NCBI RefSeq assembly: GCF_045037415.1
Contig: NZ_CP173438.1
Source: Escherichia coli
Lineage (GTDB): Bacteria > Pseudomonadota > Gammaproteobacteria > Enterobacterales > Enterobacteriaceae
Strand: one strand, 5' to 3'
DNA: 64,000 bases
Shown here piece by piece: positions 6,001 to 9,000 of the stretch. Position numbers: made by a program. How positions within the stretch are numbered: position 1 is the stretch's first letter; each line of letters begins with the position of its first letter.

Positions 6001-9000
6001 AACAGCCCCCTGTGACTGACAGGCTGCCTCGTCATTCCATTCGTATCTCCAGTAACAGGGGGTTGTATTGTATTTTATTGTACCGGTTCAGGTGTGCGTT
6101 TCCCGGCGCGTCTGCACCGGCTTAACCAAATTCAACAGGGATAAAATAGTGGTAAGCGTACAGCCTGAACCGTCTGGTCAGAATCTGACGAATTAGACAA
6201 AGTGGTGTCCACCAAATAAGTAGTGGGAACCAAAGTGTCAGATATGCAGAAAAATGTGACTCCCGGCAGGCGAAAAGGCTGCCCTAATTATCCTCCCGAA
6301 TTTAAACAGCTGCTCGTTGCTGCCTCCTGTGAACCCGGGATATCCATCTCAAAACTTGCTCTTGAAAATGGCATTAACGCCAATCTGTTGTTCAAATGGC
6401 GACAACAATGGCGCGAGGGAAAGCTGCTATTACCTTCTTCAGAGAGCCCCCAGCTACTTCCTGTGACTCTCGATGCAGCTGCCGAACAGCCAGAATCGCT
6501 CGCAGAGGACCCGGAAACCCTCAGTATCAGCTGTGAGGTAACGTTCCGGCACGGGACGCTCCGCTTCAATGGCAATGTCAGCGAAAAGCTCCTGACTCTG
6601 CTGATACAGGAACTGAAGCGATGATCCCGTTACCTTCCGGGACCAAAATTTGGCTGGTTGCCGGTATCACCGATATGAGAAATGGCTTCAACGGCCTGGC
6701 TGCGAAAGTACAAACGGCGCTGAAAGACGATCCCATGTCCGGCCATGTTTTCATTTTCCGGGGCCGCAGCGGCAGTCAGGTTAAACTGCTGTGGTCCACC
6801 GGTAACGGACTGTGCCTCCTGACCAAACGGCTGGAGCGTGGGCGCTTCGCCTGGCCGTCAGCCCGTGATGGCAAAGTGTTCCTTACGCAGGCGCAGCTGG
6901 CGATGCTGCTGGAAGGTATCGACTGGCGACAGCCCAAGCGGCTGCTGACCTCCCTGACCATGCTGTAAATCTCTTTATCCTGGTTGTCACAGAATAAGCC
7001 CGGTAAAATACGGGCTTATGAACGACATCTCTTCTGACGACATCTTCCTGCTAAAACAGCGCCTGGCCGAACAGGAAGCGCTGATCCACGCCCTGCAGGA
7101 AAAGCTGAGCAACCGGGAGCGCGAAATAGACCATCTGCAGGCGCAGCTGGATAAACTCCGCCGGATGAACTTCGGCAGTCGTTCCGAAAAAGTCTCCCGC
7201 CGTATCGCACAAATGGAAGCCGATCTGAACCGGCTTCAGAAAGAGAGCGATACGCTGACTGGTAGGGTGTATGACCCGGCAGTACAGCGTCCGTTGCGTC
7301 AGACCCGCACCCGTAAGCCGTTCCCTGAATCACTACCCCGTGACGAAAAGCGACTGTTGCCTGCGGCGCCGTGCTGCCCGAACTGCGGCGGTTCACTGAG
7401 CTATCTGGGCGAGGATACCGCCGAACAGCTGGAGTTGATGCGTAGCGCCTTCCGGGTTATCCGGACGGTACGGGAAAAACATGCCTGTACTCAGTGCGAT
7501 GCCATCGTGCAGGCACCTGCACCTTCGCGGCCCATCGAGCGGGGTATCGCCGGACCGGGGCTGCTGGCCCGCGTGCTGACCTCGAAGTATGCAGAGCACA
7601 CCCCGCTGTATTGCCAGTCAGAAATATACGGCCGGCAAGGTGTGGAGCTGAGCCGTTCACTGCTGTCGGGCTGGGTGGATGCATGCTGCCGGCTGCTGTC
7701 TCCGCTGGAAGAGGCGCTTCATGGCTATGTCATGACTGACGGCAAACTCCATGCCGATGATACCCCGGTCCAGGTACTGCTGCCGGGTAATAAGAAGACG
7801 AAGACCGGGCGGTTGTGGGCGTATGTTCGTGATGACCGCAATGCCGGGTCAGCGTTGGCACCTGCAGTGTGGTTCGCTTACAGCCCGGACAGAAAAGGCA
7901 TCCATCCGCAGACTCATCTTGCTTGCTTCAGCGGTGTGCTGCAAGCGGATGCGTACGCCGGGTTCAACGAGCTGTATCGCAATGGTGGGATAACGGAAGC
8001 TGCCTGCTGGGCTCATGCCCGCCGAAAGATCCACGATGTGCACGTCCGCATCCCGTCAGCACTGACGGAAGAAGCCCTAGAGCAGATCGGTCAGTTGTAC
8101 GCCATAGAGGCGGATATAAGGGGAATGCCGGCAGAGCAGCGGCTTGCTGAACGTCAGCGAAAAACGAAACCGCTGTTGAAATCCCTGGAAAGCTGGTTGC
8201 GTGAAAAGATGAAGACCCTGTTCTTCGGCTCTGGCCATGGTGGTGAGCGGGGAGCGCTACTGTACAGCCTGATCGGGACGTGCAAACTGAATGACGTGGA
8301 TCCAGAAAGCTACCTTCGCCATGTGCCTGGCGTCATAGCAGACTGGCCGGTCAACCGGGTCAGCGAACTGCTTCCGTGGCGCATAGCACTGCCAGCTGAA
8401 TAACACATCCCCGTCAATACGGCCCTCGCTGTACGCTTACTTTTGTTCGGACTGCTTATGGCCTTTTTCCACTGGTGTAGCAGGAAAGTTAACCGGCTGC
8501 CACCATGAGATGACGTGTAAACCGTGCAGGCATGTTTTCACGTGGTGACGCTTTCATTGGGGGTCTACGCCGGAACCCCAATATTGTTCACATACATGAA
8601 TTTGAAAAACTAAGCGATACTGCTGTCCGTACCTTATAAACTTATTTCAACGCTTCCGGCAGCGTCACAATCCACAGTTCACTGTCAGACTCCGGTTTCT
8701 CCAGTGGCTTCACTCTGAGGGTCGTTTCAACCTGCTTGTCGTCAAGCGTCAGCTTTCCTTCCGCGTTCACCCGATAATCCTTGAATGTCTTGCCCTCGAC
8801 CGGATGTTGCATCGCCACCTTCACGCCAAAGTCGTTATCGTTCGCCACCGCCAGCGTTTTGCTGTCGATCAGCGCCAACCCTTCAGCCTTCTCCTGCTGC
8901 CAGCCCAAGGAGCGCAGATCAACAACCTGCGTTTTCTGCGCAAGGGTAATGCCGCGCTGTGACAGGGTTTTCTCATCATCAAACTCCGGATACTCACCCG

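Follow-up and report, generated by a model that had tools for sequence, protein, structure and literature searches.

The first IS66-family element of the window (the 64,000-nt stretch of Escherichia coli contig NZ_CP173438.1 analysed here), copy 1, is an ISEc8 element that has lost 153 bp from within its transposase gene, tnpC. We hold with considerable confidence that it is a derivative of ISEc8 formed by a microhomology or slippage deletion, that the proximity of the breakpoint to the attachment site of another insertion sequence, ISEc45, is coincidental, and that the resulting element is non-autonomous and has spread together with the module in which it lies.

The features of copy 1, and of the other elements that bear on its history, are listed in Table 1. 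Copy 1 belongs to ISEc8, of the IS66 family: it carries the gene order tnpA-tnpB-tnpC between terminal inverted repeats starting GTAAGCG, and outside the single gap it is 99.4% identical at the nucleotide level to a reference ISEc8 copy, L001 (14 mismatches in 2289). When copy 1 was compared by megablast with 5,426 complete E. coli genomes, two classes of full-length match were returned, the first consisting of single-piece matches of 2289 bp at 99.5-100% identity, found in many genomes, and the second of two-piece matches at about 99.4% identity that span 2442 bp and are annotated as 'IS66-like element ISEc8 family transposase'. Translation of tnpC confirmed the 461-aa reading frame given in an earlier note on this DNA, in which ...WLREKMKT is followed by LFFGSGHGG. 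An 8-bp target duplication is present around the intact ISEc8 copies L001, L002 and L021. At copy 1 of the window no target-site duplication was found, the left flank (AAAATAGTG / AAATAGTG) and the right flank (TTTTGTTC) being unrelated.

Table 1. Coordinates in the window of copy 1, copy 2, ISEc45 and associated features
Feature	Position	Strand	Basis
Copy 1, ISEc8 with 153-bp internal deletion, 2289 bp	6152..8440	+	Single gap against 2442-bp ISEc8 (L001)
Left terminal inverted repeat, begins GTAAGCGTACAGCC	6152..6173	+	22-nt arm, 82% complementary to 8419-8440
tnpA, accessory protein	6244..6624	+	ORF; PGAP tnpA at equal offset in identical copies
tnpB, IS66 accessory protein	6621..6968	+	ORF and PGAP annotation of identical copies
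tnpC with 51-codon deletion, 461 aa, DDE domain truncated	7018..8403	+	ORF and Pfam/NF033517 profiles
Deletion junction, sole surviving CCTGT	8217..8221	+	Alignment; parental repeats at ISEc8 nt 2066-2070 and 2219-2223
Right terminal inverted repeat	8419..8440	+	22-nt arm pairing with 6152-6173
Phytase-like esterase gene	8642..10015		
Copy 2, IS682/ISEc43-like IS66-family element interrupted by ISEc45	32539..36517	-	Identity from PGAP names on matching loci
ISEc45, IS110 family, 1447 bp, antisense in tnpC of copy 2	32758..34204	+	PGAP name on 100%-identical copies
Third ISEc8 remnant, right end, ISEc8 nt 2194-2442	45488..45736	-	99.2% identity over 249 bp

The earlier note had described an in-frame deletion of about 150 bp inside the conserved transposase domain, and had proposed a nucleotide alignment against a reference element as the check. 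The deletion is real, and alignment to intact ISEc8 (L001) fixes it at exactly 153 bp, or 51 codons, corresponding to ISEc8 nt 2066-2218. TnpC residues 401-451 (LSRHSELAK...DNNIAENALRAVSLGRKNF; full segment LSRHSELAKAFAYALNQWPALTYYANDGWVEIDNNIAENALRAVSLGRKNF) are missing, so that the protein is shortened from 512 to 461 aa. As 153 is a multiple of three, the deletion does not break the reading frame, and tnpC is taken as intact by annotation pipelines.

Intact ISEc8 reads ...ATGAAGAC-CCTGT-CGCG...segment...AAAAACTT-CCTGT-TCTTCGG, and copy 1 reads ...ATGAAGAC-CCTGT-TCTTCGG, with one CCTGT only. In the parent, the lost segment is thus bracketed by a 5-bp direct repeat, of which the junction keeps a single copy. 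In a scan over all ISEc8 positions, microhomology of at least 5 bp was expected for 1.3% of random 153-bp deletions. The CCTGT repeats are found at both edges also in other intact ISEc8 copies (L020 and L021). We read this arrangement as the result of a single event in an intact ISEc8 ancestor, in which recombination between the CCTGT repeats, or slippage from one to the other during replication, removed 153 bp of tnpC and left one CCTGT behind. Such a route needs the intact element alone, and the retained repeat is the standard mark of a deletion between short direct repeats. The 153 bp belong to the ancestral sequence and were not gained by ISEc8 through an insertion. It may be said against slippage that 5 bp is a short repeat for this process. 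Folding of the deleted region, in search of a hairpin that might have aided slippage, revealed no unusual single-strand DNA structure (z = -0.07).

Seven positions that separate the deleted copies from L001, among them nt 2236-2237 beside the junction (GGCCAT vs GATCAT in the O157 reference), were considered as lineage markers of the deleted copies. They were rejected, as the bases are private to the O157 reference: the intact copies L020 and L021 have the same bases as copy 1 at all seven, with some differences elsewhere.

The Pfam model DDE_Tnp_IS66 is matched over positions 1-222 of 284 in copy 1 versus 1-283 in intact ISEc8, and the catalytic domain is accordingly incomplete, model positions 223-283 being absent. 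At its N-terminus the 461-aa protein retains complete leucine-zipper and zinc-finger domains. The NF033517 score is 354 bits, versus 459 for the intact protein, and since this is above the cutoff of 180 bits PGAP calls the 461-aa product an intact transposase.

To assess conservation of the lost segment, 109 full-length TnpC proteins representing the diversity of the IS66 family were drawn from a library that had been clustered at 50% identity. In their alignment, residues 401-451 were missing (at least 20 gaps in the segment) from none of the 109, and a natural short isoform of IS66 TnpC was rejected on this ground. The 'natural short variant' entertained in the earlier note thus fails as a family trait, but it stands in another sense, that of a widespread inherited allele as opposed to a private lesion (see below). 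Only 21 positions are at least 95% conserved among the 109 proteins, and they include Y413, E438, N450, D247, D311 and the C330/H333/R335/R336 motif. The near-invariant Y413, E438 and N450 all lie inside the deleted segment, E438 as part of a DNNxAE motif. D247, D311 and E438, which are 98-100% conserved, probably constitute the catalytic triad, with E438 as its third residue; E364 (97% conserved) is an alternative for that place. A sequence search of the PDB for an IS66 TnpC structure on which E438 could be placed gave no match. With E438 and its neighbours in the segment lost, copy 1 is almost certainly non-autonomous and would be unable to transpose by itself. The earlier note had considered this probable, and the loss of Y413, E438 and N450 supports it.

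The deleted form is not private to this genome: it is an allele that is inherited and very widespread. With a 100-nt query spanning the deletion junction, 4,095 records matched, about half of them in a single piece at 100%. With a query spanning the left boundary of the intact form, 3,291 genomes matched, only 1,570 of them at full length, and the other 1,721 matches ended at nt 55, as the deleted allele predicts. The allele is present in roughly 1,700-2,000 of the 5,426 complete E. coli genomes, about a third, these counts being approximate in that half-matches were joined and the junction queries do not cleanly separate deleted from intact copies. Ten deleted-allele loci were sampled, comprising eight full-length copies and two that are 5'-truncated. 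The window and nine of the ten have a common right flank, with a DUF6404 remnant and the phytase-like esterase gene. This flank is kept even for the plasmid copy. On the left side the flanks vary, and a target duplication is absent. The tnpC reading frame is open in most of the sampled deleted copies, and frameshifted ones occur as well (L007 and L019).

The exception to this shared module is a deleted copy within yehR, where it is bordered by an 8-bp target duplication (GAACGGCA). The yehR insertion occurs in 89 genomes, of the EHEC O26/O103/O111 group, and among those listed it has the deleted size in 60 of 60. The genomes that carry it hold 9-13 ISEc8-like places. As the terminal repeats of the deleted element are intact, TnpC supplied by intact ISEc8 copies could move it, and the simplest account of the yehR copy is that an already-deleted element was probably mobilised in trans. 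A defective element moved in this way is expected at independent sites with duplications, and one clear second site, yehR, was found. Gene conversion of a once-intact ISEc8 at yehR, or a second identical deletion, are possible though less simple accounts. The deleted copies have no private SNPs relative to intact copies, so that a single origin of the allele and, as against gene conversion of the yehR copy, its mobilisation in trans are probable readings rather than proven ones. The allele has spread mostly through inheritance and through transfer of its module.

Abundance of this order might also suggest that the 461-aa protein is kept because it is useful, for example as an inhibitor of the truncated-transposase type, which binds ISEc8 ends without cutting and so damps transposition. 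We regard such a functional short form as very improbable. The open frame, the intact leucine-zipper and zinc-finger domains, the frequency of the allele (about one in three complete E. coli genomes) and the intact ORF in most sampled copies would all agree with it; frameshifted copies nevertheless exist (L007 and L019), most copies lie in one locus or module, by which their abundance is explained through descent, and divergence within E. coli is too low for an open frame to show selection.

Copy 2 of the window concerns the history of copy 1 through the element that interrupts it. The two had been taken in the earlier note for copies of one IS, which they are not, as they share only about 66% nucleotide and about 60-63% amino acid identity, one being ISEc8 and the other IS682/ISEc43-like. 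Copy 2 is flanked by an 8-bp target duplication, CAAAAACT (32531-32538 and 36518-36525). The reported interruption of its transposase gene by an IS110-type element was borne out, and the element is ISEc45. Its transposase (32818-33951, 377 aa; NF033542, 279 bits) leaves 253 nt of non-coding sequence at the 3' side, and the inverted repeats of the element (TATGACCTTT) are subterminal. The insertion point in copy 2, AAAAA-CT-TTATG, falls after ...CLGKKN and between GKKN and FM; the position after GKKN is as first described, but the element precedes F-M-FFGSDHGG (its ends lying between AAAAAC and TTTATG) and not FFGSDHGG itself. A third ISEc8 remnant, missed in the earlier note, retains the GRKNF codons that are absent from copy 1, and is annotated by PGAP as 'IS66 family transposase, missing N-terminus'.

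ISEc45 seems to specialise in invading the transposase genes of the IS66 family. In all 19 contexts compared (9 copies taken from RefSeq genomes, plus 10 other distinct ones located by a protein-identity look-up) it lies antisense in an IS66-family tnpC at one and the same codon boundary, between ...G(K/R)KN and (F/Y)(M/V/L)FFGS, with junctions of the form AAAAA-CT-[CTTATGACC...CATAYCAT]-CT-T.... By PGAP name its hosts are ISEc43, ISEc22 and IS682, of which ISEc22 is the closest relative of ISEc8; the ISEc22 target site differs from the ISEc8 site at three positions. The host flanks diverge down to 51-65% identity (partly from truncation) and the ISEc45 copies are 96.7-100% identical, which indicates independent, site-specific insertions. 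Site choice by IS110/IS1111 elements is RNA-guided (PMC11187229), and by analogy the same is expected of ISEc45. In the seekRNA paper, the ISEc45 transposase is named in the supplementary files only. No described guide-RNA family was matched when ISEc45, together with its flanks, was scanned against Rfam (E up to 1), and comparison of its 3' non-coding region with the target and circle junction yielded only 6-7-mers, at about chance level, so that no guide is claimed. A literature search of incomplete coverage on ISEc45, on ISEc8 deletions and on IS66 as an IS110/IS1111 target found nothing specific.

The core CT of the ISEc45 site corresponds in ISEc8 to nt 2216-2217. Since the right breakpoint of the deletion lies in, or at the edge of, the CCTGT at nt 2219-2223, it is 1-7 nt from this core. 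The earlier note had the endpoint coincide with the IS110 attachment site; the two are indeed close, but offset by these few nucleotides. ISEc8 contains 840 pairs of direct repeats that are 5 bp or longer, and only 5 of these (0.6%) touch within 7 nt of the ISEc45 site. The nearness is unusual, yet it was singled out after the fact. Most likely it is coincidental.

The other interpretation, proposed in the earlier note, is that copy 1 carries the footprint of an IS110-family insertion and its imprecise loss, i.e. that ISEc45 once occupied its usual site in an ISEc8 copy and was later lost with about 150 bp of upstream tnpC. The constancy of the ISEc45 site in the 19 contexts, ISEc22 included, the small fraction of repeat pairs that lie as close to it as the breakpoint does, and the pAA plasmid of O104:H4, in which about 155 bp of tnpC have been lost directly abutting an ISEc45 end, all favour this idea. 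Even so, it seems to us very unlikely. No ISEc45 sequence is left at the copy-1 junction, and both breakpoints are in IS66 sequence, at a CCTGT repeat that already exists in intact ISEc8. With ISEc45 in place, 1.6 kb rather than 153 bp would separate the two CCTGT repeats, which makes slippage less likely. An IS110-family excision footprint should have a breakpoint at the IS end or core, or residual IS sequence, and copy 1 has none of these: recombination at the right-hand core predicts GACC-CT-TCCTGTTC where GACC-CT-GTTC is observed, and recombination at the ISEc45 end predicts ...GACCCTTCCTGTTC where ...GACCCTGTTC is observed. A chimeric ISEc8::ISEc45 query recovered no such junction from the 5,426 genomes; its best full-length matches were of 90% identity, in 81 genomes, and nearly all of the 30 listed were annotated as ISEc22::ISEc45. 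In its extended form this interpretation would have an RNA-guided ISEc45 resident in an ISEc8 ancestor, the loss of which took 153 bp and left a derivative immune to re-invasion and movable by a helper. We give this little chance of being correct; if true, a deleted ISEc8 without the left half of the ISEc45 target would be the trace of a conflict between two IS families.

Equally improbable is a local fragile site, in which the GRKN(F/Y)LFFGS-coding stretch would be prone to breakage and provide a common physical cause for the clustered endpoints. In its favour, three rearrangement endpoints lie within about 30 bp of the motif in three IS66-family elements of one window (the ISEc45 insertion, the deletion endpoint and, 22 nt upstream, the point at which the third remnant is truncated). 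Against it, the deleted region is without unusual single-strand structure (z = -0.07), ISEc45 should choose its site by RNA guidance, like other IS110/IS1111 elements (PMC11187229), and not through breakage, and remnants in this island are general IS debris.

Copy 1 is, then, an ordinary and very widespread defective ISEc8 allele from a common mutational route, and ISEc8, ISEc45, short-repeat deletions and non-autonomous IS derivatives are all of known kinds. No published description of the 153-bp-deleted allele, or of the IS66 target of ISEc45, was found within the incomplete literature coverage. The allele is of practical interest in that, across thousands of genomes, RefSeq/PGAP labels the 461-aa product as 'IS66 family transposase' and as intact, despite the loss of near-invariant sequence from the catalytic region, so that counts of 'active' ISEc8 are inflated. 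It can also serve as a handy marker, both for an island module that many strains share and for the insertion into yehR in the EHEC lineage O26/O103/O111. The target specificity of ISEc45 is the more noteworthy by-product, since here, in nature, mobile elements of one family have those of another as their target.

Compared with ISEc8 itself (2442 bp, tnpA-tnpB-tnpC, 8-bp duplication), copy 1 shares the terminal repeats, the three-gene layout and 99.4% nucleotide identity outside the gap, but differs in the absence of nt 2066-2218 (residues 401-451) and of a target duplication. Deletions between short direct repeats, by slipped-strand or microhomology routes, are well known, for example from the classic lacI deletion spectra. 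The loss in copy 1 is of the same type, with a 5-bp repeat bounding the segment and one copy retained, and has nothing unusual about it, 5 bp being near the lower limit of what is typical. Copy 1 also resembles those IS derivatives with internal deletions that intact copies mobilise in trans, having intact ends, a damaged transposase and a second site with an 8-bp duplication. Unlike a MITE it is far larger (2289 bp) and its tnpC frame is still open, and in its case we infer the mobilisation.

For ISEc45, as distinct from the deletion, a parallel is found in IS4321/IS5075, of the IS1111 group, whose targets are the terminal repeats of transposons of the Tn21 family (Partridge & Hall 2003, as cited in PMC11187229). 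ISEc45 and these elements alike are of IS110/IS1111 type, have a 3' non-coding region and subterminal inverted repeats, and take a fixed position and orientation in another mobile element; ISEc45 differs in that its target is a conserved coding motif inside an IS66-family transposase gene and not a terminal repeat.

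In all 19 contexts compared at their junctions, ISEc45, an IS110-family element of 1447 bp, lies antisense at the same codon of an IS66-family tnpC gene (GKKN|F/Y), with a CT core on both sides. The copies concerned are the one that interrupts copy 2, an IS682/ISEc43-like element of the window (nt 32758–34204 within 32539–36517), and those at loci L003, L010–L016 and L023–L032. Among the hosts are elements resembling ISEc43, ISEc22 and IS682; their flanking sequences are only 51–92% identical, whereas the ISEc45 copies they carry share 96.7–100% identity. ISEc45 seems to specialise in invading transposase genes of the IS66 family, a target on which a literature search turned up no paper. 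A guide RNA was sought by an Rfam scan of ISEc45 and its flanks and, in the 253-nt 3' region, by matches to the target and circle junction; none was identified.

Locus L003 (nt 2900–3010), from an O104:H4-type pAA plasmid (NZ_CP023533), lacks about 155 bp from the 3' part of the host tnpC. The gap lies exactly at the end of ISEc45, which is adjoined by ...CCATGGCAAGA near the IS66 right end, and this is an IS-adjacent deletion. In three loci with IS682-like hosts (L025, L027, L032), a 9-bp tandem duplication (CATGTTCTA CATGTTCT...) immediately follows the right end of ISEc45; it is absent from L015, which has a similar host.

Further IS66-related sequences occur elsewhere in the window (see table). 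The debris patch contains the remaining right end of an ISEc8 copy, truncated at ISEc8 nt 2194, a position 22 nt upstream of the site equivalent to that used by ISEc45, and a second IS66-family C-terminal remnant with only 40% aa identity. Immediately outside its left end, copy 2 is bordered by another, diverged fragment resembling tnpA, which is oriented head-to-head with the element's own tnpA.

Additional IS-related features of the window
Feature	Position (nt)	Strand	Remarks
IS debris patch	45488–45736, 46170–46373, 46968–47558	(-)	beside truncated P4-type integrase
Inverted repeat, 233 nt	36177–36409 and 36730–36962		79% complementary

The 106 bp (nt 6046–6151) directly left of copy 1, the ISEc8 lacking 153 bp, are repeated 20 kb away (nt 26765–26875; 94.6% identity), and the homology ends precisely at the first base of ISEc8 (…AAAATAGTG|). 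There is also no target duplication around copy 1, and deleted-ISEc8 loci in other genomes have a constant right but variable left flank. These features suggest that the boundary has undergone recombination or a rearrangement mediated by an IS.

The 461-aa deleted TnpC (nt 7018–8403; RefSeq examples WP_000998013.1 and WP_038429226.1) is called an intact 'IS66 family transposase' by PGAP because its NF033517 score, 354 bits, stays above the 180-bit cutoff; functional ISEc8 copies are therefore overcounted by automated annotation. The same deleted allele interrupts yehR in strain 97_3250 (L009) and 88 other genomes, with a target duplication of GAACGGCA. These genomes are of O26, O103 and O111 EHEC, and the insertion could serve as a lineage marker.
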